Source: Nitrospirota bacterium (GTDB lineage: Bacteria; Nitrospirota; Thermodesulfovibrionia; UBA6902). From it: 64,000 bases of DNA. The notes beneath the pieces were generated by a model. That model saw only the letters and a list, made by a program, of their open reading frames with translations. It was not told where the DNA came from and ran no database searches. The position numbers and the translations under genes are program-made. The stretch is taken from contig JACQZF010000032.1 of the NCBI GenBank assembly GCA_016213945.1, positions 20,324 through 84,323 of the forward strand. Direction: 5' to 3'. Position 1 is the stretch's first letter; each line of letters opens with the position of its first letter. Below are positions 119-61,880 of this stretch, piece by piece.

Positions 119-1369
119 ATGCTTGAAAAGTTACGTTACCTCACATCAGGTGAATCACACGGACAGGCGCTAACATGCATCATTGACGGCGTTCCTTCAA
201 ATCTTTCATTGTCTTCAAAAGATATAGATAACGACCTTGCGAGAAGGCAGAAGGGTCACGGCAGGGGCGGCAGGATGAAGATAGAAACAGACCACGCGCA
301 AATCCTCTCAGGAGTGCGGCACGGAAAAACCCTCGGCTCGCCGGTAACGCTTTTGATAGAGAACAAGGACTGGCAGAATTGGTGTGATGTTATGAATCCG
401 GAGTTGGGAGTCAGGAGTCAGGAGTCAGGAGTCAGAAGTTTGGAGTCCGTCACTCATCCTCGTCCGGGACATGCTGATCTCGCTGGCGCGATGAAATACA
501 GCACTCACGATATACGGAATATCCTTGAACGTTCAAGCGCGCGGGAGACAGCAGCAAGGGTCGCCGCTGGGGCCGTGGCAAAAAAGTTCCTCTCGGAATT
601 TAATATTCAGGTCATAAGTTATGTAGCTGAAATTGGCGGAATGAGAATAACCCCTCTAAATCCCCCCTTGGCAAGGGGGGACTTAAGGGGGGCCAAGAAT
701 CTTCTATCTCTCTTCAAAAAAGCGGAGGTCTCTCCTGTCAGGTGTCCTGATGAAGGCGCTGAAAAGAAGATGATCAGCAAAATAAATATTGCGATGAAAA
801 AAGGGGACACCCTCGGCGGTGTGTTTGAAGTCATTGTGCTTGGCGTTCCTGTCGGGCTTGGCAGTCACACCCAGTGGGACAAAAGACTGAATGCGAAACT
901 CGCTTCTTCAATGATGGGGATTCAGGCTATAAAGGGAGTTGAGATCGGGCTCGGCTTTGAGATGAGCAGAAGACACGGCTCGGAAGTGATGGACGAGATT
1001 TATTACAGAAGTCAGAAGTCAAAAGTCAAAAGTCAGAAAAGCATGTCACTGTTTTACAGGAAGACCAACAACGCCGGAGGCATTGAGGGCGGGATGAGCA
1101 ACGGGATGCCGGTCATAGTCAGGGCGGCGATGAAGCCGATCCCGACATTGAAGACACCCCTTGCCTCAGTTGATATTATCAGCAAGAAACCTTTTAAGGC
1201 GGCGTATGAAAGGTCCGATGTATGCGCAGTGCCTGCGGCATCGGTCATCGGCGAGGCGGCAACAGCCCTCGCAATCGCTGATTCTTTCCTTTCCAAGTTC
1301 GGCGGTGACAGCATGGAAGAAGTGAAGAGAAATTACAAAGGATACCTGAAGCAGATAAGTGAATTTTGA
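119..1369 (+). CDS. aroC: chorismate synthase
   Basis: N-terminus [20 protein letters not shown] and [21 protein letters not shown] motifs are typical of AroC. Three repeat-derived in-frame segments (about 401-449, 650-698, 1008-1040). Confidence 0.9.
650..698. repeat. nested G5/C5 palindromic element inside aroC (read as [14 protein letters not shown])
   Basis: aaatccccccttggcaaggggggacttaagggggg. Same architecture as 14 or more other copies in the window. Confidence 0.8.
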
Positions 1370-1390
1370 AATACTTTTGAACGGAATAAC

Positions 1391-1450
1391 GTCATTCCGG
1401 CTTGTCCGGAATCTTTCTTAAGGAAGGATTCCCGACTGAGCGGGAATGAC
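1391..1450. repeat. GTCATTCC...GGAATGAC MITE-like intergenic element
   Basis: gtcattccggcttgtccggaatc...gattcccgac...gcgggaatgac. Terminal inverted repeats; about 9 related copies in the window. Confidence 0.8.
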
Positions 1451-1490
1451 GACTAACTAACAACCTGCTATAATTTAAATCAAGGCGGCT

Positions 1491-3074
1491 ATGAAAATCG
1501 TACTGACAGGCTTTATGGGAACAGGCAAGACCTCTGTCGGCAAGGAGCTGAGCAGAAAGCTTGGATACCAGTTCATTGACACCGATGTGCTCATTGAGGA
1601 GCGTGAAAAAAAGCCGGTCTCTCTAATCTTCAAGGAAAGCGGCGAGGAGTATTTCCGCAAGGTTGAACAGGCCGTGGTTGAAGAAGTCTCCCGGCTGAAC
1701 AATGTGGTGATCGCAACAGGCGGCGGCGTTATCAAGAACAAAATAAATGTAGAGAACCTCGGCAGGAGGGGAATTATCTTCTGGCTCAAGGCGGACCCGA
1801 AGATCGTTCTAAAGAGGGTAATGCTTGAGGGAGGCAAACGGCCGCTGCTTGATGTTGAGGAGCCCCTGCAGGAGATCAACAAATTACTCACAGAGAGACT
1901 TCCGCTTTATCAGCAGGCTGATGCTTCAGTTGATACAAATTATATTACGCCTGAAGAGACCGCTAACGAGATAATTGAAATGTTAGGGCTTGACGCGCAG
2001 ACCGTCACCGTTGATCTGAAAGAGAGAAGTTACGACATTGTCATCGGCAGCAAGGTCCTCAGAAGACTTGCCCTCAGGGTGAAGGAATTCAGGCCGTCAA
2101 AGGTCGCCATTGTCAGCAACAAGACGATCTTCCCTCTATATAAAGAAACGGTTCTTAGATCGCTGGAAGAGTGCGGCATAACGCCTACCGTAATTCTCAT
2201 CCCAGACGGAGAGGAATACAAAGACTTCATGTGGACCTACCACATACACGGAGGGCTTCTTAAGGCAAAGTTTGACCGGGACGGGTTGCTCATTGCCTTT
2301 GGCGGCGGGGTCATCGGAGACATCACCGGCTTTGTGGCGTCAACTTATATGAGGGGCATAAGGTGTATCCAGGTCCCGACCACCCTGCTTTCACAGGTCG
2401 ACAGCTCGGTCGGAGGCAAGACCGGGGTGAACCATCCCCTGGGCAAAAACATGATAGGCACTTTTTATCAGCCGTCGCTTGTCATGATTGATATTGATAC
2501 ATTAAGGAGCCTCCCGAAAGGCGAGTTTTCATCCGGCCTTGCTGAGATTATTAAATACGGCGTTATCGCCGATAAGGAACTCTTTAACAGCCTCGAAAAA
2601 AACAGGGAAGACATCCTCACTCTCGGCGACAGCATTATTAAAACAATCAGGCGTTCATGCGAGATCAAGGCCGGTATCGTATCAAAAGATGAAAGGGAAT
2701 CCGGCCTGCGCGCGATCTTAAACTTCGGGCATACGATCGGTCACGCATTAGAAACCGCCACCGGCTACAAAAAATTCCTTCACGGTGAGGCGGTCGCAAT
2801 CGGTATGTGCGTAGCAGCGGACCTTGCGGTGAAATTGGGTATCCTAAAAAAAAGAGAGGCGGGACGGATCAAGTGCCTCGTTGAATTATACAAACTGCCG
2901 GGCGCAATACCCGATGGAATAAATGCCTCTGACCTTCTCTCCGCCATGGAGCTTGATAAAAAGGCCAAGGCAGGCAATATCAGGTTCATCCTTCCGGAGT
3001 CCATAGGCAAAGTCAGGATAGTGGACAGCGTCGGCATGGAATTGATTGCCCGCGTCCTACAGGCTCATGTATGA
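1491..3074 (+). CDS. aroB: bifunctional shikimate kinase / 3-dehydroquinate synthase (AroK-AroB fusion)
   Basis: N-terminal P-loop GFMGTGKTSVGKEL plus IDTD (shikimate kinase). C-terminal GGGVIGDITGFVASTYMRGIRCIQVPTTLLSQVDSSVGGKTGVNHPLGKN (DHQ synthase). Confidence 0.9.
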   Translation: MKIVLTGFMGTGKTSVGKELSRKLGYQFIDTDVLIEEREKKPVSLIFKESGEEYFRKVEQAVVEEVSRLNNVVIATGGGVIKNKINVENLGRRGIIFWLKADPKIVLKRVMLEGGKRPLLDVEEPLQEINKLLTERLPLYQQADASVDTNYITPEETANEIIEMLGLDAQTVTVDLKERSYDIVIGSKVLRRLALRVKEFRPSKVAIVSNKTIFPLYKETVLRSLEECGITPTVILIPDGEEYKDFMWTYHIHGGLLKAKFDRDGLLIAFGGGVIGDITGFVASTYMRGIRCIQVPTTLLSQVDSSVGGKTGVNHPLGKNMIGTFYQPSLVMIDIDTLRSLPKGEFSSGLAEIIKYGVIADKELFNSLEKNREDILTLGDSIIKTIRRSCEIKAGIVSKDERESGLRAILNFGHTIGHALETATGYKKFLHGEAVAIGMCVAADLAVKLGILKKREAGRIKCLVELYKLPGAIPDGINASDLLSAMELDKKAKAGNIRFILPESIGKVRIVDSVGMELIARVLQAHV

Positions 3075-3530: not shown

Positions 3531-6500
3531 TTTTCTTAAACTTCCTTCCTTTCCACAACATATAAATCGCAGGATATATGATTAGTTCAAGAATTGTCGA
3601 GGTAATGACCCCGCCAACCATCGGGGCGGCAATGCGCTTCATCACATCGGAGCCTGCACCGTGGCTGAACATGATGGGGACAAGACCCGCAAGGATGACG
3701 CTGACGGTCATTATCTTAGGGCGGATTCTCTTGACGGCGCCGTGCATTATTGCATCTTTAAGGTCTGAAATATTATTCATCTTGCCTTCCTTTTTCCACT
3801 GCTCATACGCAAGCTCAAGATAAAGGAGCATTACTACGCCTGTCTCCGCGTCAAGCCCTGCAAGGGCAATTATCCCTACCCATACGGCGATGCTCATATT
3901 GTAATTGAGCAGATATAAAAGCCAGAATGAGCCGACAAGGGAAAAGGGCACCGCAAGGAGCACGATCATCGTCTTGGCCACGGATTTGGTATTCAGGAAA
4001 ATAAGCACAAAGATGATAAGCACGGTAAGAGGGATCACGAGTTTCAACCTCTCCTGTGTTTTCACAAGGTATTCATACTCGCCGCTCCACTCAAGGCGGT
4101 ACCCGTCAGGGATTTTCAGGGATGAAACTTTCGCCTTTGCCTCCTCAACATAACCTCCAACGTCCCTGCCGGAAAAATCTATGAATACATAGGACGCCAG
4201 AAGCCCTTCCTCGCTCTTGATGCCTGTCGGCCCCCTGACTATTTTCATATCCACAAGCTGACCGAGAGGGACCTGTAAAGAGTTAGGAGTTGAGAGTTGA
4301 GAGTTAAGGGTTGAAGAAGGACCCATTCCACCTGACCCCTGACTCATAGCTCCGGGTCCTTGCCCCATGACCGGCACAAGGACCCTCTTTAACTTTTCAA
4401 TATTGTCCCTCAGCTCCCTTGAGTATCTGATATTCACCGGATACCTTTCCCTTCCCTCTATGGTGGTGGTCAGGGGCATGCCGCCGATTGCTGTTTGAAC
4501 AATTTCCTGGATGTCGTCAACGTTTATCCCGTATCTCGCGGCCTCGGCGCGCTTGATATTAAAGTCCAGGAAATATCCGGTGGTCAACCTTTCCGCATAG
4601 GCGCTCCGGGTGCCCCTGATGTCCTTGACAAGATTCTCAATCTCAAGCCCGATCCTTTCGATCTCTTCTATGTTCGGCCCCATGACCTTGATGCCGACCG
4701 GCGTCCTTATGCCGGTGGAAAGCATGTCAATGCGCGCCTTGATCGGCATTGTAAAGGAATTTGCAACCCCCGGTATGGACAAGGCGTCATTTAACTCATT
4801 TTTCAATCCCTCAACTGTCATGCCTTCGCGCCATTCGGACGCAGGCTTTAAATTAATCACTGTCTCAAACATCTCAAGCGGCGCGGGGTCTGTGGCGGTC
4901 TCCGCCCTTCCTGCCTTTCCGAATACCTGGGCGACTTCGGGAACCTGTTTAATGAGTTTGTCCTGCAATTGAATAAGCTTTGAGACCTCTGATATGGAGG
5001 CGGCAGGCACGGTGACAGGCATGTAGAAAAGCGTGCCCTCATAAAGCGGCGGCATGAATTCAGTGCCGAGCTTCATAAACGGGTACACAGTCATCGCCAT
5101 GATTATTACGGCGATTAAGATGACGGTCTTTTTGAATCTCAGTGCAAACCCCGCAAATGGCTCATATATTTTATGGAGGATGATGCTTATCGGATGTCTT
5201 TCTTCAGGGTAGATCAGGAACAGATATTTGAGAACAGGTATTTTGCTTAACACCGGTATTTTGCCGTGAATAAAGATCGTCATCAGCACAGGGGTGATGG
5301 TCACGGCAAGGAATGACGAAAACAGCATCGCAAAAGTTTTTGTGTACGCCAGGGGCTTGAACAACCTGCCTGCTTGCGCCTGAAGGGTAAATACAGGAAG
5401 GAAGCCGACAGTGATGACTAATAATGAGAAGAACAGCGAAGGCCCGACCTCTTTGGCGGCTTCGATGATGACATCAACACGACCCCCCTGAAGTCCCCCC
5501 TTAGTAAGGGGGGATTTAGAGGGGTCATGCTCCCACTCCTCCAACTTCTTATGCGCATTCTCCACCATTATTATCGACGCGTCCACCATTGCGCCGATAG
5601 CGATGGCAATGCCGCTCAGGCTCATGATATTGGAAGAAACACCCAGATAGAACATGCATATAAATGAAATGATGATCGCTATCGGCAGGGTCAGGATGAC
5701 CACAAGCGCGCTCGGCAGATGGAATAAAAAGATGATGCACACGGCGCTCACCGCGATAGAAAGCTTTACGATCTCCTCTTTAAGCGTGTCAATGGAGCGG
5801 CGTATGAGGTCGGACCTATCATAAGTCGTGACGATCTTCATACCCTTCGGGAGGCTCGGCTCGATATCGTTTTTGATCTTCTCTTTGACCCTTTCGATGA
5901 CATTGAGGACGTTCTCACCGAAGCGCACGACAACGATGCCGCCTGCCACTTCGCCTTTTCCGTCAAGCTCTGCAATCCCCCTTCTTATCTCCGGGCCGAT
6001 CTGCACATTGGCGATGTCCTTCAGAAAGACAGGCGTCCCTGTCCCGCCGGCCGCAACCGGGACGTTCTTCAGGTCATCAAGTGTTTTGATATAGCCCCTG
6101 CCCCTTAACATGTACTCAACCCCGGAGAATTCCAGCACCCTTCCTTCAACGTCCTTATTGCTCTTTTTGACGGCTTCCATAACGGTCGTTATAGGGATGT
6201 TGTATGCAAGCAGTTTGTTCGGGTCTACGGTGATCTGGTATTGTTTGACGAAGCCGCCGATGCTCGCGACCTGCGAGACCCCGGGAACGCTTTCGAGCGC
6301 AAGCTTGATGTTGTAGTCCTGGACTGTCCTCAGGTTCGAAAGGTCGTATTGGTTTGTTTCGTCAATAACTGCATAGGAAAATCCCCACCCTACGCTTGTG
6401 GCATCAGGCCCGAGCACGGGATTGGCATCGGCAGGGAGCTTGCCCTTGACGGCCTGCAGATATTCCAGCACCCTGCTCCTGGCCCAGTAGATATCAGTGC

Positions 6501-6798
6501 CTTCTTCGAATATCACATAGATAAAAGAGCTGCCGAGATAGGAAAAGCCTCGCACCACCTGGACCTTCGGGGCGGCAAGGAGCGTTGAAGTTATCGGATA
6601 GGTTATCTGGTCTTCCACAAGGTCAGGGCTTCTACCCTCCCATGAGGTAAATACTATTACTTGCGTATCGCTTAAATCCGGTATGGCGTCAAGCGGGGTC
6701 TGCTTCAGCGCCCAATAACCCCAGATGCAGAGGAACCCGACAAGCAGGAATATGATAAATTTGTTCCTTGCGCTGTATTCGATGATTTTGGCTATCAT
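3517..6798 (-). CDS. cusA: CusA/CzcA-family heavy-metal efflux RND transporter
   Basis: 1093 aa. N-terminus MIAKIIEYSARNKFIIFLL...LKQTPLDAIPDLSDTQVIV is typical of the HME-RND family. Two repeat-derived in-frame inserts (about 4279-4317 and 5485-5530). Confidence 0.9.
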   Translation of the reverse strand: MIAKIIEYSARNKFIIFLLVGFLCIWGYWALKQTPLDAIPDLSDTQVIVFTSWEGRSPDLVEDQITYPITSTLLAAPKVQVVRGFSYLGSSFIYVIFEEGTDIYWARSRVLEYLQAVKGKLPADANPVLGPDATSVGWGFSYAVIDETNQYDLSNLRTVQDYNIKLALESVPGVSQVASIGGFVKQYQITVDPNKLLAYNIPITTVMEAVKKSNKDVEGRVLEFSGVEYMLRGRGYIKTLDDLKNVPVAAGGTGTPVFLKDIANVQIGPEIRRGIAELDGKGEVAGGIVVVRFGENVLNVIERVKEKIKNDIEPSLPKGMKIVTTYDRSDLIRRSIDTLKEEIVKLSIAVSAVCIIFLFHLPSALVVILTLPIAIIISFICMFYLGVSSNIMSLSGIAIAIGAMVDASIIMVENAHKKLEEWEHDPSKSPLTKGGLQGGRVDVIIEAAKEVGPSLFFSLLVITVGFLPVFTLQAQAGRLFKPLAYTKTFAMLFSSFLAVTITPVLMTIFIHGKIPVLSKIPVLKYLFLIYPEERHPISIILHKIYEPFAGFALRFKKTVILIAVIIMAMTVYPFMKLGTEFMPPLYEGTLFYMPVTVPAASISEVSKLIQLQDKLIKQVPEVAQVFGKAGRAETATDPAPLEMFETVINLKPASEWREGMTVEGLKNELNDALSIPGVANSFTMPIKARIDMLSTGIRTPVGIKVMGPNIEEIERIGLEIENLVKDIRGTRSAYAERLTTGYFLDFNIKRAEAARYGINVDDIQEIVQTAIGGMPLTTTIEGRERYPVNIRYSRELRDNIEKLKRVLVPVMGQGPGAMSQGSGGMGPSSTLNSQLSTPNSLQVPLGQLVDMKIVRGPTGIKSEEGLLASYVFIDFSGRDVGGYVEEAKAKVSSLKIPDGYRLEWSGEYEYLVKTQERLKLVIPLTVLIIFVLIFLNTKSVAKTMIVLLAVPFSLVGSFWLLYLLNYNMSIAVWVGIIALAGLDAETGVVMLLYLELAYEQWKKEGKMNNISDLKDAIMHGAVKRIRPKIMTVSVILAGLVPIMFSHGAGSDVMKRIAAPMVGGVITSTILELIIYPAIYMLWKGRKFKKNENA

Positions 6799-6836
6799 AA
6801 TTGATCTGTAAGGGCGGGGTGACCCCGCCCCTACGT

Positions 6837-7982
6837 TTAATGTTTATGCACTCCGACCGGCTTTACGCCCTTTAACTGCGCCTCCGAGTCAATGAGGAAG
6901 GTGCCGGTGTAGGCGACCCTTTCTCCTGCATCCACTCCGTGCAGGACCTCCGTCATTCCATCAGCCTTTAAGCCAAGATGGACTTCCCTCGGCTCAAAAT
7001 AACCTTCGCCTTTGTCCACGTAAATTATCTGCCGTATGCCTGTGTCGATCACTGCCTCATCCGGGACGGCAAGTCTCTTGCCCATATCAATCCTGATCTC
7101 AACATTTGTAAACATCTGCGGCTTAAGCTGGCTGGACGGGTTGTTGATCGTGAACCTTACCTTCGCTGTCCTGGTGTCGCCTGAGAGGGCGGGGTATATA
7201 TAATCAATGGTTGATGAGAAGACTTTGCCGGAGAAATAACTGAGGCTGATGTCAGCGGTCTGCCCGATCTTGATAAAAGGTATTTCATATTCATAAATGT
7301 CCGATATGACCCAGACGCTTGATAAATCGGCAAGGTCAAAAAGTTTTTCACCCGGCATCACACGCATCCCCTGCAGCACGGTTTTCTGAACGACATAACC
7401 GTTTGCGGGGCTGTAAATCGTCAAAGTCCTTACCGGCTTTCCTGTTTCCTCCATCGTCTTTATCTGCTCATCGGTTATGTCCCATAATTTTAATCTCTGC
7501 CTTGCAGCGTCAACGATCCGTTCAGCGTCTTTTGAAAGCATGGAGCTGACTGCTGACTGCTGACCGCTGACCGCTGATTGGTTCCACTTCAGCACATTTA
7601 TAAATTCCTGCTGTGTCGCCACAAGCTCAGGGCTGTAGATCTCCGCAAGCGGTTCGCCTTTTTTCACATACTTTCCGGTGTAATCAATATAGAGTTTTTC
7701 TATCCATCCTTCAATTTTTGTATTTACAGTGGCAAGCAGTTTTTCGCTATATTCAACGCGCCCCACGGTCCTGATAATCTTCTGCATCGGCTTCACTGCT
7801 GCCGCTGCTGTTTTAACGCCGATCAATTGCTGTTTTTCAGGTTCGATCTCAACGGTCGGGGCTTCCTCCTCTGCCTGCGGCGCTGCAGCTTCATGCTGGT
7901 GCTGGGAGTATGATGGAGACGTGTTGAGAGAAAAAAAGATAAATGTGATTAAGCTAAAAAATTTTAGTTGTTTACTTTTCAT
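6837..7982 (-). CDS. cusB: efflux RND periplasmic adaptor (CusB-like)
   Basis: Signal peptide and membrane-fusion-protein architecture. Sits between the TolC-like and CusA genes. Heptamer array 7545-7578 is read as SAVSGQQSAVSS. Confidence 0.85.
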   Translation of the reverse strand: MKSKQLKFFSLITFIFFSLNTSPSYSQHQHEAAAPQAEEEAPTVEIEPEKQQLIGVKTAAAAVKPMQKIIRTVGRVEYSEKLLATVNTKIEGWIEKLYIDYTGKYVKKGEPLAEIYSPELVATQQEFINVLKWNQSAVSGQQSAVSSMLSKDAERIVDAARQRLKLWDITDEQIKTMEETGKPVRTLTIYSPANGYVVQKTVLQGMRVMPGEKLFDLADLSSVWVISDIYEYEIPFIKIGQTADISLSYFSGKVFSSTIDYIYPALSGDTRTAKVRFTINNPSSQLKPQMFTNVEIRIDMGKRLAVPDEAVIDTGIRQIIYVDKGEGYFEPREVHLGLKADGMTEVLHGVDAGERVAYTGTFLIDSEAQLKGVKPVGVHKH

Positions 7983-8062
7983 TTAATGCTCCTTTAACTG
8001 TCATACTGGACCCGTTTCGGCATTTATTCACAAAAAGACCCTGAAATAAGTTCAGTGTGACA

Positions 8063-9743: not shown

Positions 9744-10074
9744 CGTAACCTCCTGTTTTTTTCGTTCAAGTTATACGGAACATATTACATCATGTAATAG
9801 TCGCAATCAAGTAAATTTTATAGCACAATAGTGAATTAAATATGAATTCAAATACTGCTGCAAGCAAAGCTGTTATTTATGCAGCAGGCTCCTTTTATTG
9901 ATTAGCAGGAGAAATTATTACATGACACCCGGAGAGGTGTCCGTTGAATTGAAAAGAAAACTGTGGTAATGTTACTCATAATAAACAATTAAGTGAAGGG
10001 GGGTGACAGATTTATTTTTACCAAGACAATTATACCGTCTTTGTAAACCACTTTAAAATTATACAGGAGGGAAA

Positions 10075-10611: not shown

Positions 10612-10641
10612 ATCCACTATTTAACTTTAGCAATCTGAAGT

Positions 10642-10670
10642 CCCCGCCTGCAAGGCGGGGATTTTTATTT
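10642..10670 (+). terminator. rho-independent terminator
   Basis: ccccgcc-tgcaa-ggcgggg followed by atttttattt. Confidence 0.75.
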
Positions 10671-50693: not shown

Positions 50694-50784
50694 AATTCCG
50701 TTCCATGTCATTCCGGCTTGACCGGAATCTTGTAGGGGCAACCCCTGCGGTTACCCTCTATGCGGGCAGGTTCAAAACCTGCCC

Positions 50785-54381: not shown

Positions 54382-55614
54382 CTAACCCCTCTTTTCCAAA
54401 GAGGGGAAGATATTGTCCCCCTTTGTAAAAGGGGGATGTAGGGGGATTTTGGTAACAATATTTTTTAATTCTTTCAGCAACATCTTATTATGCTTTCTGG
54501 ATTTGACAGCTACCCTGACATACGAATTGTCCAGGCCTTTGAAGTTTGTGCAGTCTCGAACAAGGATGCCTTTCTCTCTAAGTGCTTGGACTACCCCCCC
54601 TTCGCCCCCCCTTACCAAGGGGGGGATGGGGGGGGTAATTTTTAGTAAGTAATAATTCACCGACGACGGATAAAAGCGGATCCCCATCTTCCTGAAGCCT
54701 CTCTCCATAAATTCCTTTTCCTTTGCTATCAATTCAAATGTCTGCTTTGCATACTCAGTGTCTTCAAGCGCGGTGATCGCCGCCTTCTGCGCCAGATTGT
54801 TTACAGTCCACGGTTCTTTAAAACCTTTTATCTGAGAAATCAGATTAGGATGAAAGACCCCGTATCCTATCCTCAATCCAGTAAGCGCATAAAACTTTGT
54901 CATTGAGCGCAGCACGATCAAATAAGGATTGTCCTGAACATGATCGATCACCGATTCCTCTGGGTGAAAATCAATGAACGCCTCATCTACAACAAGCACG
55001 CATTGCGTATCTCTTGCAGCTTCAGCAATTCTCAACACATCGCCTTTCTTAAGAAGATGGCCCGTCGGATTGTTCGGGTTGCAAAGAAAGAGGAGTTTGG
55101 CGTTTGGCGTTTGGCGTTCAGAGTTAAAAGAAAGTGTCTTGATTGCAGATATGAATTCGTCAGTGATTACCCTGAAATTATTTTCTTTTCTTAACTCATA
55201 ACTCTTAACTCTGAACTCTGAACTTAATTTGCAGGCCTTTTCATATTCCGAAAAAGTCGGAGCGGGAATGAGCGCCGTCTCCGGTTTCAACGCGCGCGGA
55301 ATAAGATAGATAAGCTCGGTGCTGCCGTTGCCGCAGATAATGGTTTCAGGACTGATATCGTGAAATCGTGAAAGTCTTTCTCTCAGCATTTTTGATTCAG
55401 GGTCAGGGTAATTGATCAGGCCGTTCATCTCACTCTTAATTACGTTCTTCACCTTCCGCGAAACTCCGAGCGGGTTGATAGACGCGCTGAAGTCAATTAA
55501 TTTGTCTTCAGAAACTCCAAGCTCTTCCGCAATCCTGTAGATATTCCCGCCGTGATCGAACAAGCTCGGCGTTAAGCGTTCAGAGTTCAGCGTTCCAAAA
55601 TTCTCTTTGATCAT
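54382..55614 (-). CDS. cobD: threonine-phosphate decarboxylase (class I/II aminotransferase fold)
   Basis: HGGNIY...LIDFSASINPLG, SMTKFYALTGLRIGY. Multiple in-frame repeat inserts, and the C-terminus lies inside palindromic elements. Confidence 0.8.
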   Translation of the reverse strand: MIKENFGTLNSERLTPSLFDHGGNIYRIAEELGVSEDKLIDFSASINPLGVSRKVKNVIKSEMNGLINYPDPESKMLRERLSRFHDISPETIICGNGSTELIYLIPRALKPETALIPAPTFSEYEKACKLSSEFRVKSYELRKENNFRVITDEFISAIKTLSFNSERQTPNAKLLFLCNPNNPTGHLLKKGDVLRIAEAARDTQCVLVVDEAFIDFHPEESVIDHVQDNPYLIVLRSMTKFYALTGLRIGYGVFHPNLISQIKGFKEPWTVNNLAQKAAITALEDTEYAKQTFELIAKEKEFMERGFRKMGIRFYPSSVNYYLLKITPPIPPLVRGGEGGVVQALREKGILVRDCTNFKGLDNSYVRVAVKSRKHNKMLLKELKNIVTKIPLHPPFTKGDNIFPSLEKRG

Positions 55615-56684
55615 ATAGCAGTTCTCAAATACAGTAATATTAGTGCAAGTCCAAAGCCAAGCAGAGAAGTAAGTTTAATAATTGAGATCGCATTCCCTGA
55701 AGCATTAAGGTACACCTGTTCTTTTACTTCTGACTTCTGACTTCTGACTTCTGACTTTTCTTCTCCGATGTACGGCTTCTCAACAAGAACGCCGCTGTAC
55801 ATTGAAGGCCCGCCGAGCCTTACTCCCAATGCTCCTGCCATTGCCGCCTCCGGGATCCCGCTGTTGGGGCTTAAATGTTTCCTGCCGTCACGCAGCGTAA
55901 TGCGTAATGCGTGATGCGTGATGCGTGATGCGTTCTCAGGATATTTAAATATTGTAATAATGAATGTCGCTATCACGATTAGCATCCCGGTAATCCTCGC
56001 CGGGATGTAATTGGCTATATCATCGAGTTTGGCGGACGCCCATCCGAAATTTATATATCTTTCATTCCTGTACCCGACCATTGAATCGAGGGTGTTGATT
56101 GCCTTGTACGCCATTGCCAGAGGCAGACCGCCGATTGCGAAATAAAACATCGGTGCGATGATTCCGTCAGAGGCGTTCTCTGAAAGAGTCTCGATGGTTG
56201 CCTTTAATATCCCTTTATCGTCTAATTGCTTTGTGTCCCTGCCCACGATCATGCTGAGCTTGTTTTTCGCTTCCTCTTCATTTCCGGTATTCAGGGAATC
56301 TATCACTGCGCGTCCTGATTTAATGAGATCGCGGGTCGCGATTGTGGTGGACGCAAGATACACAACAAATAAAAGCGCAAGATATGAAAACGGCTTCGGC
56401 AAATTCGGGCCCAAAAGCAATGAACTCAATAAATAAAACAATCCATAAGTCGAGCCGACAATAATAATCACAAGGAGAATTCCCATAAACTTGTCTTTCA
56501 GTCTGTGCTCTGTGTTCTGTGTTCTGTGTTCTGTGTTCTGTCTTCTGCCTTCTGTCTTTCTCAACACCCTCTCCATCCTCTCGATCGCCAGCCCGATGAA
56601 CCGCACCGGGTGCGGCAGCCAGCGCGGATCACCTATGATCAGGTCAAGGATATAAGCCGATGTCAATATGACCGGTTCTACCAT
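55611..56684 (-). CDS. cbiB: adenosylcobinamide-phosphate synthase
   Basis: GDPRWLPHPVRFIG, SPNSGIPEAAMAGALG. Three heptamer inserts. Confidence 0.85.
   Translation of the reverse strand: MVEPVILTSAYILDLIIGDPRWLPHPVRFIGLAIERMERVLRKTEGRRQNTEHRTQNTEHRLKDKFMGILLVIIIVGSTYGLFYLLSSLLLGPNLPKPFSYLALLFVVYLASTTIATRDLIKSGRAVIDSLNTGNEEEAKNKLSMIVGRDTKQLDDKGILKATIETLSENASDGIIAPMFYFAIGGLPLAMAYKAINTLDSMVGYRNERYINFGWASAKLDDIANYIPARITGMLIVIATFIITIFKYPENASRITHHALRITLRDGRKHLSPNSGIPEAAMAGALGVRLGGPSMYSGVLVEKPYIGEEKSEVRSQKSEVKEQVYLNASGNAISIIKLTSLLGFGLALILLYLRTAI
56501..56560. repeat. 7-bp tandem array (CTGTGTT/CTGTCTT type) inside cbiB
   Basis: gtctgtgctctgtgttctgtgttctgtgttctgtgttctgtcttctgccttctgtctttc is read on the minus strand as RKTEGRRQNTEHRTQNTEHR. 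Confidence 0.85.
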
Positions 56685-58399
56685 AGTGCACCCTTAATGA
56701 GGGGTTCCTTGCAGTATTCCATACCGAGCTGTCTCAGGATAAAACATATGTCCACGCTGTGTTTCAGGATATCAGCCCACTTGTTTATCGCTTCATCTCT
56801 AACAGCCTGATAATTAAATCCCGCCTGCTGAAGCGGCAGGCCTTTTTCCTTCCTGAGCGAATTCAGTAAGGCGGTCCTGAAATCATCATTGTCAAATACG
56901 CCGTGTAGGTACGTTCCCCAGACGTTGTCTTTCAATGAGCCATCGAGGATCTCAAATCCCCCCTTGCCCCCCTTTTCTAAAGGGGGGATGGGGGGATTTT
57001 CCGTGTTCTTGAATCTATTCAGTTTAAACAACCCGGTATCTCCCGTAGTCTCTCCCACATGAATTTCATAACCTCTGAGAAAATTATTTCCATAACTCTT
57101 AACTCCCAACTCTACACGCTCAACTAACTCCGCTTCCACCTGACATGTCGTCTTTGTTTTATTAAGTGTAGTAACAATATCAAGCAGTCCCATCCCGTCC
57201 ACCTCTTTCATGGTGCTTTCAACGCCGTATGGGTCGAATATTTTTTTGCCTAACATCTGATAACCACCACATACGCCGACAAGATGGACGCCTTTGTTGA
57301 CGGCAGCCTTCACGCAATCTTCCATTCCGCTTTCTCTTAATAACAGCAGATCGCTTACCGTGTTCTTGGAGCCGGGGATAATTATTACATCAGCGCTCAT
57401 GATGTCATCTTCCCACAGGGAATATTTAAGCTCGACATCAGGCTCGTGCAAAAACGGGGCAAAGTCGGTAAAGTTTGAAATATATTTCAATCGCAAAACT
57501 ACAATCTTGATTGTTTTAAACGCCGAACGCTGAACGCTGAACGCTGAATTTCTTTCGAGCGACAATCCGTCTTCCTCGTCAAGGTTCATATCTTTCTGAT
57601 AATTCAGCACGCCGATCACCGGCTTGCCTGTTTTGTCCTCTATCATCCTCAGCCCCGGACGCAGTATGTCTATATTGCCCCGGAATTTATTTACGATAAA
57701 CGCTTTGATGAAGTCTGCGTCAGATAATCCCCCTATATCCCCCTTTTTCAAAGGGGGACTTTCTTCCCCTCTATCAAGAGGGGTTAGGTGTGTGTTCCCC
57801 CCTTTGTCAAAGGGGGGTGGGGGGGGATTTTTCAACAACTCCACTGTCCCGTAAAAAGACGCAAACACTCCGCCCCTGTCGATGTCGCCGACAAGGACCA
57901 CAGGCGCGTCTGTATAACGCGCCACTCTCATGTTCACAACTTCTTCCTTTTGAAGATTGATCTCAGCGGGACTGCCCGCGCCTTCTATAACAATAAGATC
58001 GTATTGTTGAGAAAGCCTGTCATACGCTGCGGTAATTACATCCCATACTTTATCCTTGATCGCATAATATTCTTCCGCTTTCATTGTCTCATACACTTTG
58101 CCGTTCAGTATCACCTGGCATCCAGCCTCGCCGGTCGCCTTGAGGAGCACCGGGTTCATGTCATTGGATGGCTCAACTCCCGCGGCCTCTGCCTGAAACG
58201 CCTGCGCCCTCCCTATTTCGCCGCCTTGTTTTGTGATGAAGGAATTCAGCGCCATGTTCTGCGCCTTAAACGGCGCGACCCTGATGCCCATATCTCTGAA
58301 TATCCTGCACAGGCCCGCGACAATAACGCTCTTGCCCGCGCCTGAACCTGTACCCTGTATCATCAATGCCTTTGCCATGTTCTTTTTTGTCATGAACAT
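56678..58399 (-). CDS. cobQ: cobyric acid synthase
   Basis: MIQGTGSGAGKS, FKAQNMALNS, C-terminal GATase GVCGGYQMLG. 573 aa with several palindromic and heptamer inserts. Confidence 0.85.
   Translation of the reverse strand: MFMTKKNMAKALMIQGTGSGAGKSVIVAGLCRIFRDMGIRVAPFKAQNMALNSFITKQGGEIGRAQAFQAEAAGVEPSNDMNPVLLKATGEAGCQVILNGKVYETMKAEEYYAIKDKVWDVITAAYDRLSQQYDLIVIEGAGSPAEINLQKEEVVNMRVARYTDAPVVLVGDIDRGGVFASFYGTVELLKNPPPPPFDKGGNTHLTPLDRGEESPPLKKGDIGGLSDADFIKAFIVNKFRGNIDILRPGLRMIEDKTGKPVIGVLNYQKDMNLDEEDGLSLERNSAFSVQRSAFKTIKIVVLRLKYISNFTDFAPFLHEPDVELKYSLWEDDIMSADVIIIPGSKNTVSDLLLLRESGMEDCVKAAVNKGVHLVGVCGGYQMLGKKIFDPYGVESTMKEVDGMGLLDIVTTLNKTKTTCQVEAELVERVELGVKSYGNNFLRGYEIHVGETTGDTGLFKLNRFKNTENPPIPPLEKGGKGGFEILDGSLKDNVWGTYLHGVFDNDDFRTALLNSLRKEKGLPLQQAGFNYQAVRDEAINKWADILKHSVDICFILRQLGMEYCKEPLIKGALW
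57726..57832. repeat. three consecutive nested G/C palindromic elements inside cobQ
   Basis: aatccccctatatccccctttttcaaaggggga / cttcccctctatcaagagggg / ttcccccctttgtcaaaggggggtggggggggattttt. Read as PPPPFDKGGNTHLTPLDRGEESPPLKKGDIGG. Confidence 0.85.
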
Positions 58400-58405
58400 A
58401 AAAAT

Positions 58406-58483
58406 GTCATTCCGGCTTGTCCGGAATCAAGATTCCCGATGCGCGGAGCCTGTCCCGACTTGTTCGGGGCTTACGGGAATGAC
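58406..58483. repeat. GTCATTCC...GGAATGAC MITE-like element
   Basis: gtcattccggcttgtccggaatc...gattcccgat...cgggaatgac. Confidence 0.75.
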
Positions 58484-59175
58484 AGATTATTGCTTCCTCC
58501 ATTAATCAATTTTACAACGGGATACTTGTCCCATATCTCTATAACATTCAAACATCCGTAATCCTGTTCGACCCTGAAAATATTCTCAAGCGGGACACCT
58601 AACAATTCGCAGAGTATTACCCTGTTTATTCCCCCGTGTGCGATTATGGCAATATTGTCAAATCCCCCCATCCCCCCTTTTCTAAAGGGGGGCGAGAGGG
58701 GATTATTTTTGTTCTGTCTTAAAATCTTCTCCAACGCAATCACCGCCCTCTCCCTTACCTCAATCGTGCTCTCCCCGCCCATCGGGCTGAACTTCAGGGG
58801 ATTGTCTGCCCACGCATTAAAGGCATCAGGCCATTTCTCTTTTATCTCATCAAAGGACATGCCCTCCCAGATGCCGAAGTTGCGCTCTCTCAGCTCAGGC
58901 ATTATGGCTGGTTTTAATCCATGCGGCCCCGCAATGATCTCCGCGCTTTTTATCGCACGTGAAAGGTCGGAGCAGTAGACAGCGGTGATTCTTGTCTTTG
59001 TAGGGGCGGGTTTTAAACCCGCCCCTACACTGCCATCCTGCACAATATGTTCTGCTACCCTCTTCATCTGTTCAACTCCGTGCTCCGACAGCGGAACATC
59101 TATATGCCCTTTGTAGCGTCTGACCTCCGCGCCCTCTGTTTCACCGTGCCGGATTAAATAAATTTTTGTGAACAT
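58471..59175 (-). CDS. cobC: alpha-ribazole phosphatase (histidine phosphatase family)
   Basis: Start chosen at MFTKIYLIRHGETEG (RHG motif). Position between cobS and cobQ. Two in-frame palindromic inserts. Confidence 0.75.
   Translation of the reverse strand: MFTKIYLIRHGETEGAEVRRYKGHIDVPLSEHGVEQMKRVAEHIVQDGSVGAGLKPAPTKTRITAVYCSDLSRAIKSAEIIAGPHGLKPAIMPELRERNFGIWEGMSFDEIKEKWPDAFNAWADNPLKFSPMGGESTIEVRERAVIALEKILRQNKNNPLSPPFRKGGMGGFDNIAIIAHGGINRVILCELLGVPLENIFRVEQDYGCLNVIEIWDKYPVVKLINGGSNNLSFP
59000..59028. repeat. GGGGCGGGTTTTAAACCCGCCCC palindrome inside cobC (read as GAGLKPAPT)
   Basis: gtaggggcgggttttaaacccgcccctac. Confidence 0.85.
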
Positions 59176-60008
59176 ATGATCACCGTCATTAAAAACAATA
59201 GTTCCGACATCTCGGCAACCGCGCCAAATGTATCGCCTGTCATGCCGCCAAAGTTTTTGTTTGAAAACCAAACCGCGATAATGCAGAAAATATACAGCAC
59301 GGGCAACACCGGCGCAAAGGCGGACAACTGGAAAGATGAATTCAGCATTCCATTGCTGACAACTAATGCGGCGCTTAGTACAATCAAAGCTGATAGTGTC
59401 GCAATCACTAACTCCTTTATCCCTGTGTTCTCAATAAATATTTTTCCGAGCCCGTCCTGTCTCGCTGATTTGCAATGAAAGATCGCAGGCACCATCGCCC
59501 ATCTTGAAAAAACAGGCATCAGAAACAGTGACGAGTAATAAGTGACGAGTGACGGGTGAGAAAATAAGGCATTCAGTGAAAGGTATTTCAGCAAAATGAC
59601 AAGGACTATCGCTATGACGCCAAATGGCCCGACCGTGCTGTCTTTCATGATCGCCAGTTTCTTTTCCCTGGTCCCTCTTGATGCGATCGCGTCAAACGTG
59701 TCCGCAAGACCGTCAAGATGGAGCCCCCCGGTAGTTATCACAATTACAAGGACGACCAGTCCATTCGCCAATTCAACAGGGAAAATTTTCAGGAACAACG
59801 CTGCCGAGATTGAGAACAACGCCCCCTGTACCGCCCCGGCAACCGGAAAGAATGCGGAAGCGCCCCCGATCTCTTTTTCAGAGACATCCCTCATCTCTTT
59901 CAAGGGGATGATCGTCAGAAAATGGAATGCGAGCAGGAAACGGGTGACGGGTGACGAGTGACGGGTGACGAGCGGTCCCTCTAACGGCATGTTTTTCTTT
60001 CTGTCCAT
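59154..60008 (-). CDS. cobS: adenosylcobinamide-GDP ribazoletransferase (cobalamin synthase)
   Basis: FLTIIPL..., HLDGLADTFDA motif, multi-TM. Start uncertain (M24 or M30 of the track ORF). Confidence 0.8.
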   Translation of the reverse strand: MDRKKNMPLEGPLVTRHSSPVTRFLLAFHFLTIIPLKEMRDVSEKEIGGASAFFPVAGAVQGALFSISAALFLKIFPVELANGLVVLVIVITTGGLHLDGLADTFDAIASRGTREKKLAIMKDSTVGPFGVIAIVLVILLKYLSLNALFSHPSLVTYYSSLFLMPVFSRWAMVPAIFHCKSARQDGLGKIFIENTGIKELVIATLSALIVLSAALVVSNGMLNSSFQLSAFAPVLPVLYIFCIIAVWFSNKNFGGMTGDTFGAVAEMSELLFLMTVIICSQKFI

Positions 60009-60077
60009 AATGTTTATCTCTGCTGGACGTACGCAAACGCCCAGCCGTACTGGCGGGTTTAAAACCCGCCCCTGCAA

Positions 60078-61160
60078 TTAATCCTTTTCAGAAACCCCGG
60101 CCTCGCCGAACGTTGCCATCTCTTTATAAATTTTAGTCCCTGCTTCGATGACGAACATTGCCAGGGCGGCCCCTGTCCCTTCTCCGAGCCTCAGATCAAG
60201 GTCAAGGATGGGCCGTAAGCCGATCTTCTCAAGCATTGCCTTGTGTCCCACTTCCTGAGACATGTGGGCCGCGAACATGTAGTCTTTTGTGTTCGGTTCA
60301 ATCGTGTAGGCGATAAGCGCGCCGGCAGTTGAGATAAAACCGTCAACTACAACAGGTATCCTGTTGGCCGCTGCCCCGATGATCAATCCCGCAATGCCCG
60401 CGATCTCCGCGCCGCCTATCTTTGAAAGCACATCAAAGGCGTCGGAAGGATTTGGCCTGTTCAAGGCAATCGAGTCTTTGATCACCTGCACTTTGTGTTT
60501 CCATGTATCGTCATTTATCCCTGTCCCCCTGCCTGTGATCTCTTCAACTGATTTACCTGTAAGCACTGCTGCGATTGCGCTTGAAGGTGTTGTGTTTGCA
60601 ATGCCCATGTCTCCGGTCCCGAATATTTTGTATCCCTTTTTTGCGTATTCGTTTGCCAGCTCTATCCCGACCTGAATGCACTTAGCAGTTTCATCTTTTG
60701 TCATGGCCGGACCTTTTCTCATGTTCTTTGTGCCTGAAACAACTTTACGCGAGATAAAATATCCTCCTGTTCCGGTAGGGGCGGGTTTTAAACCCGCCCC
60801 TGCAAAATCATAATCAACTCCGATATCTACAACCACCACATCCGCTCCAGCGTGTCTCGCAAGCACGTTAATACCCGCGCCGCCATTCAGGAAATTCAAA
60901 ACCATCTGCGGCGTCACCGCCTTTGGAAATGCCGACACGCCTTCATCCGCAACTCCGTGGTCTCCTGCGAAGGTGAAGACTACTTTTTTATCAAGCGCGG
61001 GCATGGCGGTTTCGGTGATTGAAACAACCTGTTTTGCAAACTCCTCAAGCCTGCCGAGACTGCCCTGCGGCTTTGTAAGATTGTCCAGACGCTTCTGTGC
61101 CTGATCGATGAACTTTCCATTAACATGCGATATTCCTGATAACAATGAGCTCAAATCCAT
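60078..61160 (-). CDS. cobT: nicotinate-nucleotide--dimethylbenzimidazole phosphoribosyltransferase
   Basis: [38 protein letters not shown]. Palindrome insert 60776-60804 is read as GAGLKPAPT. Confidence 0.85.
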
Positions 61161-61200
61161 AAATCCTCCAATAATTAATTTTAGGTTGCTTTATTGAGAC

Positions 61201-61268
61201 GTCATTCCGGCTTGTCCGGAATCCCTCCCGAAGAAAGATTCCCGACGCGCTTCGCTTGCGTGAATGAC
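61201..61268. repeat. GTCATTCC...TGAATGAC MITE-like element
   Basis: gtcattccggcttgtccggaatc...gattcccgacgcgcttcgcttgcgtgaatgac. Confidence 0.75.
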
Positions 61269-61316
61269 CAAAGAAAACAGCTCATGCTGGTTTAGTAATG
61301 TTGTATTTTTCATTTT

Positions 61317-61880
61317 TCACTTTTCACTTTTTATTTTAATTGGTATCCCGGCGGTGACCAGATACACTTCATCTGCTGTCTCTGCTATTTTCTGATTCAG
61401 CATCCCCGCCAAATCCCTGAACCGCCTCGCCATCTCGTTTTCCGGCACAATCCCCATACCGACTTCGTTGGAGACGATGAAAATGCGTGATACGTTATGC
61501 GTAATGTGTAACGGATGATTTATTTTTTGTAATGTTTCAAATAATATTCCGATGTCTTTATCTTCAGTCTGTGTTCTGTATTCTGTGTTCTGTATTCTGA
61601 TCATTAAATTCGATACCCAAAGCGTCAGACAATCGAGAATGATGACCCCGTATTTACTGCTTATCTCTGAGATCAAATCAGCAACATTCAAAGGCTCTTC
61701 AAACGTGTCCCAGTCAGCGCCGCGCCCGTCTTTGTGTTTCCTGATGCGTTCCTTCATCTCATCATCAAGCGCCTGAGCGGTTGCGATATACGCCTTCGGC
61801 CCTGAAATTTTTTCAGCCTCTTTCATAGCAAAAGAACTCTTGCCGCTTCTCGCGCCGCCTATGACGAATGTTATTTTCAT
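61317..61880 (-). CDS. cobU: bifunctional adenosylcobinamide kinase / cobinamide-phosphate guanylyltransferase
   Basis: P-loop GGARSGKS, IILDCLTLW, VSNEVG. Heptamer insert is read as IRIQNTEYRTQTED. Confidence 0.85.
   Translation of the reverse strand: MKITFVIGGARSGKSSFAMKEAEKISGPKAYIATAQALDDEMKERIRKHKDGRGADWDTFEEPLNVADLISEISSKYGVIILDCLTLWVSNLMIRIQNTEYRTQTEDKDIGILFETLQKINHPLHITHNVSRIFIVSNEVGMGIVPENEMARRFRDLAGMLNQKIAETADEVYLVTAGIPIKIKSEK

Follow-up and report, generated by a model that had tools for sequence, protein, structure and literature searches.

The stretch analysed here (the window) comprises 64,000 nucleotides of a Nitrospirota bacterium (Thermodesulfovibrionia, UBA6902; assembly GCA_016213945.1, contig JACQZF010000032.1, positions 20,324 to 84,323) and encodes, by Pfam, chorismate synthase (aroC), AcrB-type CusA, CusB, a P-type ATPase with YHS domains (copA), a radical-SAM/DUF2344 protein (rSAM825), CbiM, a CbiX-CbiC fusion, CbiB, CobQ and CobS. 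All of these genes host short tandem arrays with a period of seven nucleotides, which are the subject of this study. Approximately 35 distinct period-7 arrays were called with Tandem Repeats Finder (TRF), within a few bases of the positions given in an initial annotation of the same DNA, which had described many 7-bp arrays throughout, lying in named housekeeping genes whose open reading frames (ORFs) stayed open; the gene names agree with Pfam. Exact runs of at least three copies numbered 11 at period 7 versus none in five dinucleotide-like shuffles, and none were found in the window at periods 4–6 or 8–15, while a mismatch-tolerant scan returned 23 strong arrays, each overlapping a long ORF. 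About 24 of the 35 arrays lie within Pfam-verified housekeeping ORFs, every one of which is open through its array or arrays. Because about ten arrays are intergenic, density per kilobase is roughly four times higher between genes (~1.6 per kb) than within them (~0.42 per kb). Enrichment is limited to periods 7 and 8, both in the window and over 1.1 Mb of related loci, and period-8 arrays form a smaller second family in the window. Over all loci taken together, 239 arrays could be assigned with confidence to coding and 19 to non-coding DNA.

The arrays are genuine sequence and not assembly artefacts. For three sequencing runs, independent Logan assemblies agree with the window at 99.97–100% identity over five array-containing stretches, with one mismatch and no gaps, and are identical across, for example, the CbiX-CbiC array at 52056–52089. 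The initial annotation was right that there are many heptanucleotide unit types and that the in-frame arrays encode low-complexity heptad peptides, but it erred in some details. The cbiM unit is GTCAAAA rather than GTCAGAA, and while the peptides SAVSGQQSAVS and NTEHRTQNTEHR are encoded as given, one 13-mer is absent as written (its nearest matches are a 12-mer in CbiB and a 10-mer in the cbiN leader). A further peptide, VTGDEVTGDG, does not exist: VTGD is read only on the antisense (+) strand of the cobS and cbiC arrays, and the peptides actually encoded there are PVTRHPS-like.

Coding arrays are found at a restricted set of protein positions. For example, the two arrays and one palindromic insert of aroC fall in gaps between conserved blocks of the Aquifex chorismate synthase 1q1l, to which they add 6, 10 and 3 residues (10 for the loop 3 array). 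In an AlphaFold model of AroC built with 50 orthologues, the predicted local distance difference test score (pLDDT) drops below 50 at residues 96–114, 179–190 and 291–328, ranges that take in the three insert segments, and the inserts are thus predicted to sit in disordered loops. Both results speak to the question, posed with the initial annotation, of whether inserts map to surface loops, and the orthologues carry different peptides at these sites rather than the same peptides without DNA periodicity. In the secretin, the longest array of the window encodes, in its T-rich orientation, the hydrophobic core of the signal peptide CFLSSVFCLLFSVFCLLS; in cbiM the array lies upstream of the AHA|MHISEG cleavage motif, with the CbiM domain beginning at residue 36, and the CobS domain begins at residue 50. 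Overall, the sites of coding arrays are disordered loops, domain linkers, N- and C-termini and signal-peptide regions, and are common to the clade.

These sites persist while their content changes. Loci retrieved for comparison are designated by L and a number. The CbiB proteins of about 20 genomes share three hot spots with heptad-periodic peptides of varying length, reaching more than 50 residues at one hot spot in L006; HRTQ-type peptides occupy hot spot 1 at the orthologous site in L004, L006, L011, L012 and L013, with L004 about one heptad (6–7 aa) shorter than the window. Among 120 AroC orthologues, three loops are hypervariable and match the three insert loops of the window, and loop 2 lengths peak at 16–17, 23–24, 30–31 and 37 aa, that is, in 7-aa or 21-bp steps. 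The related locus L003 (~80% nucleotide identity) has an array at 11 of the 14 alignable array sites, usually with another unit: AAGTCAG in the window versus GGGCAAA at cbiB 55726 (equal array length), ACGCATC versus TCACTTG at cbiB 55895, CAGCGGT versus GGGGCAA at CbiX-CbiC 52206, and (CTCCAAA)n in L003 at CbiX-CbiC 52056–52089. The cobQ site (57519–57548) holds an unrelated palindrome in L003, the CbiQ array keeps its unit CTTCCCA, and the cbiB array at 56502–56555 is missing (39-bp gap). In cbiM, (AGTCAAA)4 in the window corresponds to (AGTCAGA)4 in L003, one position having changed in all units, which indicates concerted evolution. Just downstream, CTTGTCA is present once in the window and four times in L003, leaving an exact 21-bp gap.

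A closer comparison is provided by L084. Exact-protein look-ups had returned only short Logan contigs 99.97–100% identical to the window, and the 90% clusters of ten array-bearing proteins were singletons except one, which led to this locus. Its flanks are 93–94% identical to the window, yet only two arrays are kept, those of cusB and the cusC N-terminus, nearly base for base, while about eight other sites have different content. For example, aroC loop 1 holds a palindrome plus (CCCAATC)4, aroC loop 3 holds (GGGCAAA)n of nearly the same length as the array in the window, the cusA site (4279–4317) holds a different G-rich array, and the cusC C-terminal site (8089–8116) holds other units; at two sites a CCCCC/GGGGG palindrome in the window corresponds to a heptamer array. 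Unit sequence and copy number at a site therefore change far faster than the flanks, through whole-unit gain and loss and homogenisation. The term ‘inserted’ in the initial annotation is apt in that content turns over, but not for the sites themselves, which are old and common to the clade.

The coding arrays also bear the marks of selection on the reading frame. Because 7 = 1 mod 3, an array encodes one cyclic heptapeptide in all three frames, so that strand alone matters for the peptide, and only three-unit changes (21 bp, 7 aa) are frame-neutral. Coding units in the window are stop-free in 22 of 22 cases on the sense strand but in only 5 of 22 on the antisense strand, and an antisense stop in 17 of 22 compares with 31% expected. 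Among 182 coding arrays, sense-strand T-content and flanking-protein hydropathy are correlated (rho 0.27, p 3e-4): loops of the SQKSEVR or NTEHRTQ type come from T-poor units, and membrane or signal segments of the LLSVFCL type from the T-rich complement. Of 234 arrays, 166 have 40 or more open codons on each side, and only 1 of 183 homology-checked protein/locus pairs is out of frame at an array. This is the cobS of L011 (7177–7206), where two frames split exactly at (CACTATT)4, the site of the 59527–59559 array of the window; the L011 array is 10 nt shorter, misses the in-frame state by one unit and is counted as a natural slippage product. A homology-free frameshift scan gave five candidates, among which homology confirmed L011 cobS alone, with at least two others judged to be adjacent-gene or antisense-ORF artefacts. 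The frame data match purifying selection on slippage-prone sequence, the opposite of what contingency loci display.

In a CbiB scan with one genome per species, the genomes closest to the window were Nitrospirota/Thermodesulfovibrionia metagenome-assembled genomes (MAGs), mostly from groundwater or the subsurface. The 19 closest array-bearing loci carry 1.4–13 period-7 arrays per 10 kb (loci in this range include L003–L015, L018, L019, L051 and L062), and no arrays were found in L016, L017, L020, L025 or L030; more distant relatives, Thermodesulfovibrio among them, have none. At periods 5, 6 and 9 none of the related loci is enriched, and 80 further metagenome loci fetched with CobT had only period-7 (47) and period-8 (6) arrays. 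The arrays are thus a trait of a certain Nitrospirota clade, found in all genomes sampled from it, and a heritable property rather than a peculiarity of this contig. No account of intragenic heptamer arrays in Nitrospirota was found in the searchable literature.

Within genomes, unrelated loci share units. The 234 arrays compared resolve into 86 canonical units, and 152 use units that occur at least three times; for example, AACACAG was counted 29 times over 15 genomes, and arrays of the AAGTCAG type are present at eight unrelated sites of the window. GTCA is enriched in units (55 arrays versus 9.7 expected), as are AGT and TCA. Identical units were found in 5.6% of array pairs within genomes, which are necessarily non-orthologous sites, versus 2.9% between genomes, a result matched in 0 of 500 permutations. 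A one-mismatch neighbour exists for 95% of units versus 80% in the null model; this effect is modest, and multiplicity and within-genome sharing were relied on instead because heptamer space under rotation and strand is small. In places sharing extends to exact sequence including flanks: a stretch of 36 nt, four non-periodic flanking bases among them, is identical in the rSAM825 and cbiB (55726–55757) arrays, the A-rich right flank of the copA array is also that of the rSAM825 array (family D3), and the CbiX-CbiC array at 52206–52237 is 91% identical to the cusB array (family D6). No target-site duplications or longer conserved flanks were found around the eight AAGTCAG-type arrays.

Table 1 Tandem arrays, hairpins and dispersed repeats of the window. 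Subscript-like numbers after a unit are copy numbers; z, folding score relative to shuffles.
Feature	Unit and copies	Positions	Strand	Peptide or remark	Basis
aroC loop 1 array	(GGAGTCA)~6	400-447 (TRF 407-447)	+		TRF
aroC loop 3 array	(CAGAAGT/CAAAAGT)4.7	1006-1038	+		TRF
cusA array	CTCAACT-like (coding strand)	4279-4317 (TRF 4279-4314)	-	SSTLNSQLSTPNS	TRF
cusB array	(CAGCGGT/CAGCAGT)4.7	7545-7577	-	SAVSGQQSAVS	TRF
TolC-like cusC, C-terminus	(AGTCAGA/G)4	8089-8116	-		TRF
cusC, codons 5-15	(CAGAAGT/CAGAAGA)	9312-9343	-		TRF
copA array	(AGTCAGA)5	16727-16761	+	linker of two N-terminal YHS/TRASH domains	TRF, Pfam
secretin array	(TGTCTTC/TGTTTTC)7.9	27482-27536	+		TRF
rSAM825 array, perfect	(AAGTCAG)4.6	40173-40204	+	radical-SAM/DUF2344	TRF
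CbiQ array	(CTTCCCA)4.4	50381-50411	-	LPTSHFPLLT; membrane protein	TRF
cbiM-cbiN junction/cbiN leader	(AAGTCAG)4.4 + (ACTTCTC)4.9	50989-51121	-	imperfect inverted pair	TRF
cbiM array, perfect	(AGTCAAA)4.3	51867-51896	-	charged n-region of leader	TRF, Pfam
CbiX-CbiC array	(CGTCACC)-type	52056-52089	-	SSPVTRHPSLV	TRF
CbiX-CbiC array	(CAGCGGT)-type	52206-52237	-	QQSAVSDQQSA	TRF
cbiA array pair	8-mer	53873-53956	-	AAEQQSSRATGVEPFVTELLSYCATEL	TRF
cobD aminotransferase, two arrays	(AACGCCA)3.4 and (AGTTCAG/AGTTAAG)5.1	55095-55224	-		TRF
cbiB hot spot 3 array, perfect	(AAGTCAG)4.6	55726-55757	-		TRF
cbiB hot spot 2 array	(ACGCATC)5.6	55895-55933	-		TRF
cbiB hot spot 1 array	(ACAGAAC)7.7	56502-56555	-	RRQNTEHRTQNTEHR	TRF
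cobQ array	(TTCAGCG)4.3	57519-57548	-	NSAFSVQRSAF	TRF
CobS array	(TCACTCG)-type	59527-59559	-	membrane protein	TRF
cobS array before CobS domain	(CGTCACC)4.4	59940-59970	-	PLVTRHSSPVTRF	TRF, Pfam
array across cobU stop codon	(GAAAAAT/GAAAAGT)	61305-61337	-		TRF
cobU array	(CAGAACA/CAGAATA)4.6	61568-61599	-	IQNTEYRTQTE	TRF
recR-ybaB intergenic inverted pair	7-mer	19694-19781		L084 has another element here	TRF
SRP RNA-tRNA-Ser hairpin	(ATCAGCN)-type	22300-22357			fold z -8.3
rng-larE intergenic hairpin	(GTAAGAA)4 + (ACTTCTC)4	43758-43844			fold z -4.3
hairpin between convergent fsa and rSAM443	(AAGTGAG)n + (TCCTACT)n	47089-47169			fold z -5.5
four hairpins at gene boundaries	8-mer CACNGAGA	44673-44763, 46008-46085, 46757-46829, 48677-48737			fold z -5 to -9.8
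compound palindrome copies		651-692, 5483-5524, 9266-9304, 20657-20675, 36061-36101, 41444-41462, 54417-54435, 54594-54635, 56958-56995, 57739-57757, 57797-57817, 58664-58701, 62993-63011			
GTCATTCCGGCTTGTCCGGAATC-family copies		1378-1441, 21998-22074, 39377-39440, 48552-48615, 50694-50729, 58393-58428, 61188-61268			

Non-coding arrays occur as inverted pairs at gene boundaries, with stems of 25–30 bp and A/T-rich loops (z about -4 to -10); the four CACNGAGA hairpins lie within 4 kb (44673–48739; family D11). By inference from position and fold, such hairpins plausibly act as terminators or as RNA or 3'-end stabilisers. Some intragenic arrays are inverted pairs too, namely those of the cbiN leader, cobD and the cusC of L084. 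The cbiN-leader pair encloses an 8-mer array and folds weakly (z -3.2), the two cobD arrays are partly complementary to one another, and the predicted fold of the cbiA 8-mer pair is not significant against shuffles (z -0.4). The tRNA and signal recognition particle (SRP) RNA genes (an SRP RNA and two tRNA-Ser genes among 22178–22276, 22367–22457 and 24187–24276, all on the minus strand) are directly flanked by heptamer arrays or hairpins.

A second class of repeat consists of about 13 compound palindromes of ~40–45 bp with the form AAATCCCCC..TCCCCCC-loop-GGGGGG..GGGGGATTT. Twelve copies are intragenic and in frame, encoding PPLxKGGxGGF-type peptides; heptamer arrays replace them at matching L084 sites, and their arms resemble two units of the (AATCCCC)n array in aroC of L084. 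Rickettsia palindromic elements and other intragenic MITEs are dispersed 100–150 bp palindromes that lie in frame in housekeeping genes at tolerant surface positions. The CCCCC/GGGGG and GGGGCGGG elements behave similarly as short in-frame repeats in housekeeping genes, and this dispersed in-frame palindromic character is found in those elements but not in single direct heptamer arrays; unlike the heptamer arrays, the Rickettsia-type elements have no tandem structure, 7-nt periodicity or 21-bp length quanta. Between L121 (at ~4090) and L122, which are 99.4% identical, and between L105 and L106, indels of 44, 32 and 15 bp all fall in CCCCC/GGGGG palindromes, one of them nested at the centre of another copy, reflecting either active mobility or recombination between adjacent hairpins. 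The 44-bp L121/L122 indel was considered as proof of transposition and rejected, as a deletion between two adjacent similar hairpins fits equally.

In cusC the N-terminal array adjoins a CCCCC/GGGGG palindrome at 9262–9308. In L084 (9933–10249) an inverted second arm of the array encodes the hydrophobic core of the signal peptide; this core and some 20 residues after it are missing from the 9230–9355 segment of the window. Since the palindromic element stands in their place, the cusC copy of the window may be N-terminally damaged. L084 also carries, between cusB and cusA (12565–12966), a bAvd/23S-rRNA-intervening-sequence-type four-helix-bundle gene that is absent from the window. At cbiM, two Logan contigs from different runs (L166 and L167) both end at 51867, the edge of the perfect (CTTTTGA)4 array, and these ends may hint at copy-number heterogeneity in the population.

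Other repeats and neighbouring features were recorded alongside. A third intragenic palindrome family, GTAGGGGCGGGTTTTAAACCCGCCCCTGCA (37358–37387, 50760–50789, 59000–59029, 60047–60076 and 60775–60804), gives GAGLKPAPT peptides in CobT, CobC and a TPR protein, and a dispersed repeat of the form GTCATTCCGGCTTGTCCGGAATC ... GATTCCCGACAAGC ... GCGGGAATGAC is present in 6–7 copies, mostly at gene boundaries, with some overlapping listed ORFs. A cobalamin riboswitch (61990–62187, minus strand) lies upstream of the cobU-cbi operon. Met/Gly/His-rich ORFs (11676–12608, 14342–14749, 16125–16529) adjoin the copA and cus genes and contain 18-, 42- and 21/45-bp repeats; they are probably metal-binding proteins, with repeats unrelated to the heptamers. 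Between gspE-like and gspF-like genes of a secretion or pilus operon (30790–33821) are four ORFs without a Pfam match and a MazF toxin.

Heptamer arrays are also found in other phyla. Perfect (CAGAACA)n arrays of 7 to >25 copies were retrieved with the QNTEHRTQ peptide pattern in loci among L052–L082 (e.g. L056 1–175, L065 10104–10234, L053 1086–1209), with hosts including Treponema, Synergistales, Acidobacteriota, Actinomadura, Marinomonas, Chroococcopsis, Planctomycetota and Bacteroidota, and many of these arrays are at contig ends. In L073, a Vicinamibacterales MAG (Acidobacteriota, 68% GC), positions 5448–14991 hold seven heptamer arrays with units AAAGGGC and AACACAG, both shared with the Nitrospirota clade; some are inverted pairs and one encodes a FabD C-terminal tail, KKGQRAEGKGQRQR. 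An association with phages was rejected, as (CAGAACA)4 occurred in 1 of 2.9 million viral contigs.

Several known systems resemble the arrays in part. Heterocystous cyanobacteria reportedly (Mazel 1990) carry the heptamers STRR1 (CCCCAGT), STRR2 (TTGGTCA) and STRR3 (CAACAGT), where STRR denotes short tandemly repeated repetitive sequences. The initial annotation was reminded of these; the likeness holds at the level of a heptamer class, but not for the STRR family proper, as no tandem STRR1–3 units occur on either strand of the window, the host is a member of the Nitrospirota, and, where the cyanobacterial repeats are intergenic, two thirds of those here are coding. Together with the Nostoc GGGGATT arrays (PMC4692102), STRR share with the present arrays the heptamer tandems, several unit families per genome and abundance in one lineage, and (CCCAATC)4 of L084 is the reverse complement of the Nostoc unit. 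The closest class is the long simple sequence repeats (LSSRs; units of 5–11 nt), among which heptanucleotides were the commonest in most prokaryotic genomes surveyed, with polymerase slippage as the proposed origin (Mrazek 2007, as summarised in PMC4679880 and PMC4692102). In those summaries LSSRs are likewise strict 7-nt head-to-tail arrays of scattered, lineage-specific occurrence. Above-chance tandems of short units and heptanucleotide predominance are found in the window as well; however, LSSRs are reported there as overwhelmingly intergenic, with non-triplet units essentially confined to non-coding DNA, whereas about two thirds of the arrays here (~24 of 35) are intragenic and in frame, with 21-bp quanta, clade-wide hot spots and dozens of units per genome. 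In Xanthomonas, intergenic GGGAATC arrays have four units as their mode and include some inverted pairs (Rehm et al., PMC4692102).

TAACTGA repeats occur in marine Beggiatoaceae, cyanobacteria and Bacteroidetes, where regulator binding has been proposed (MacGregor 2015, PMC4679880). They also form 2–6-copy heptamer arrays, with a few intragenic cases at protein termini and an unexplained cross-phylum distribution; one orientation has stops in all frames, hence only the other can code, and their CTGA/TCAG core recurs in many units of the window. In contrast, the Beggiatoaceae repeats are a single unit, mostly right upstream of start codons, with related heptamers unrepeated, while the arrays here have many units and lie mostly inside ORFs, a few just after start codons; TAACTGA itself occurs in the window as four single copies, none in tandem. 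Phase-variable simple sequence repeats of Haemophilus and Neisseria, including heptanucleotide repeats at hmw promoters (PMC8262952; PMC11868660), are alike in that non-triplet units shift the frame and that some lie in signal-peptide coding regions, but differ in that the present arrays show no paired ON and OFF states, have low copy number and reside in core metabolic hosts. Contingency hosts are surface, host-interaction or restriction-modification genes, and among the hosts here only the secretin and the TolC-like protein fit, in contrast to aroC, cbi/cob, radical-SAM, copA and cusAB. What sets the present case apart are the predominantly intragenic, in-frame heptamers in conserved genes, their clade-wide hot spots, the 21-bp quantised lengths, the unit diversity and the Nitrospirota host.

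We hold, with somewhat more confidence than doubt, that the arrays are fast-evolving STRR/LSSR-like heptanucleotide (less often octanucleotide) microsatellites, produced by slippage and between-locus copying and filtered for frame, stops and hydropathy. Slipped-strand mispairing or template switching in a 7-nt register would drive the arrays, and whole-unit gain and loss with homogenisation would renew their content at old sites. Occasional template switching or ectopic conversion between arrays would spread genome-specific units, and coding selection would keep arrays that are in frame, free of sense stops and matched in hydropathy to their context. Most coding arrays would then be tolerated passengers, a few having been co-opted as linkers or signal peptides.

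A number of observations weigh against this account. Unit sequences are far from random and are not predicted by pure local slippage. Array size is also constrained: the number of periodic positions per array is nearly uniform from 21 to 27 with none at 28–29, arrays of 7–8 units are rare, and the 19 confidently non-coding arrays mostly have fewer than five units (17–37 nt). Coding and non-coding lengths both peak near four units, and as non-coding arrays are mostly short too, frame selection alone probably does not explain the size. Growth from one to four copies by single units in an essential gene would cross frameshifted intermediates, so that multi-unit events, between-locus copying or a ready-made array, or polyploidy must be invoked. 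Exchanges of heptamer array and palindrome at one site look more like insertion than slippage. Copy-number polymorphism was not seen directly, as assemblies from the three runs agree exactly over several arrays, and the indels between near-identical metagenome contigs fall in palindromic elements only. Finally, CAGAACA and AAAGGGC arrays, often long, also occur in unrelated phyla, which local slippage from native seeds does not predict.

The size ceiling, the problem of frameshifted intermediates and the cross-phylum units leave two forms of ready-made origin as rivals. In the first, a mobile cassette would deliver arrays and hairpins as ~30–45-nt pieces, slippage would only remodel them, and hot spots would in part reflect target preference. 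Three loci do carry one 31–32-nt (AAGTCAG)4+AAG(T) string in matching phase, including the two identical over 36 nt, and the excess of shared units within genomes, the shortness of non-coding arrays and the recurrence of identical units in other phyla are as expected of such delivery. One AroC loop hosts heptamer arrays, CCCCC/GGGGG palindromes or a third palindrome depending on lineage, with swaps at 93% flank identity, and the 44-bp palindrome indel separates contigs that are 99.4% identical. Small dispersed repeats of Nostoc are likewise reported (Elhai 2008) to lie often within tandem heptamers. Nevertheless, this origin is unlikely: the AAGTCAG-type arrays lack conserved flanks and target-site duplications, more than 80 distinct units are too many for a single template, and a Pfam scan that included the unknown ORFs revealed no transposase, reverse transcriptase or nuclease candidate encoded in the window. 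The 1-versus-4-copy gap and the concerted single-base change in and beside cbiM are signatures of slippage, the 44-bp indel has its alternative in deletion, and (CAGAACA)4 is rare in viral contigs. The second form, which we regard as quite unlikely, is a dedicated, horizontally transferable repeat writer, perhaps a template-switching or reverse-transcribing polymerase that in each event adds some three units, or 21 bp and two helical turns; its preferred heptamers may be CAGAACA, AAGTCAG and GGGCAAA, also arrayed in Acidobacteriota, spirochaetes, Synergistota and cyanobacteria.

It is very unlikely that the arrays are selected functional modules, kept for an RNA-level role (regulator binding, structure) or a protein-level role (linker, signal peptide). 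Every clade member retains something at the hot-spot loops, some arrays clearly supply the n- or h-region of a signal peptide (cbiM, secretin, L084 cusC), intergenic pairs form stable hairpins at gene ends, and the excess of antisense stops in coding units would fit such a role. However, the content of sites is not conserved even at 93% flank identity, some AroC orthologues manage with minimal loops (P0046, P0048; site 3 is 9 aa in nine sequences), the inserts are predicted to be disordered, and the intragenic cbiA pair folds no better than shuffles.

The initial annotation had suggested that the arrays could also act as contingency (phase-variable) sites. One-unit changes would then switch host genes on or off and generate population heterogeneity. 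One- or two-unit changes within ORFs do shift the frame, and arrays lie just after the starts of envelope genes (secretin, TolC-like) and in the cbiM leader, a position comparable to that of Neisseria opa-type repeats, which lie in the signal-peptide region; L011 cobS is out of frame, and the two contigs ending at the cbiM array may be the trace of a copy-number bubble in the assembly graph. This suggestion is nonetheless highly improbable as a general account and does not survive for the housekeeping genes, whose arrays are not contingency switches. Unselected frame switching would leave far more than 1 of 183 pairs out of frame, the hosts are single-copy biosynthetic or replication genes (aroC, cbi/cob, radical-SAM, copA), most arrays have only about four units, copy number of the cusC N-terminal array is equal in L084, and the three-run assemblies show no copy-number difference. 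Phase variation is conceivable only for the 5'-end arrays of the secretin (27482–27536) and the TolC-like gene (9312–9343). Least credible of all is an assembly or sequencing artefact: although long (CAGAACA)n arrays of other phyla are often at contig ends and short-read contigs break at some arrays, orthologous sites carry arrays in more than 20 MAGs from different studies, and the arrays, which three runs reproduce, are all in frame and short enough (~30 bp) for single reads to span.

Non-triplet microsatellites are, in the textbook view, excluded from genes unless they serve as switches, whereas here hundreds are tolerated in essential genes across a clade. This exposes a strong, lineage-specific mutational process in a 7-nt register whose output is moulded by selection into 21-bp quanta, strand-dependent hydropathy and permissive loops. 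In practice, such arrays break short-read assemblies, inflate low-complexity homology matches and mimic contingency loci. The cause of heptamer dominance among long bacterial simple sequence repeats becomes approachable by comparing genomes with and without arrays in one phylum. The arrays also show how conserved proteins can acquire low-complexity loops, linkers or even signal peptides de novo; if a repeat writer does exist, it would be a built-in generator of in-frame peptide novelty, rewriting loops, linkers and signal peptides throughout the clade.

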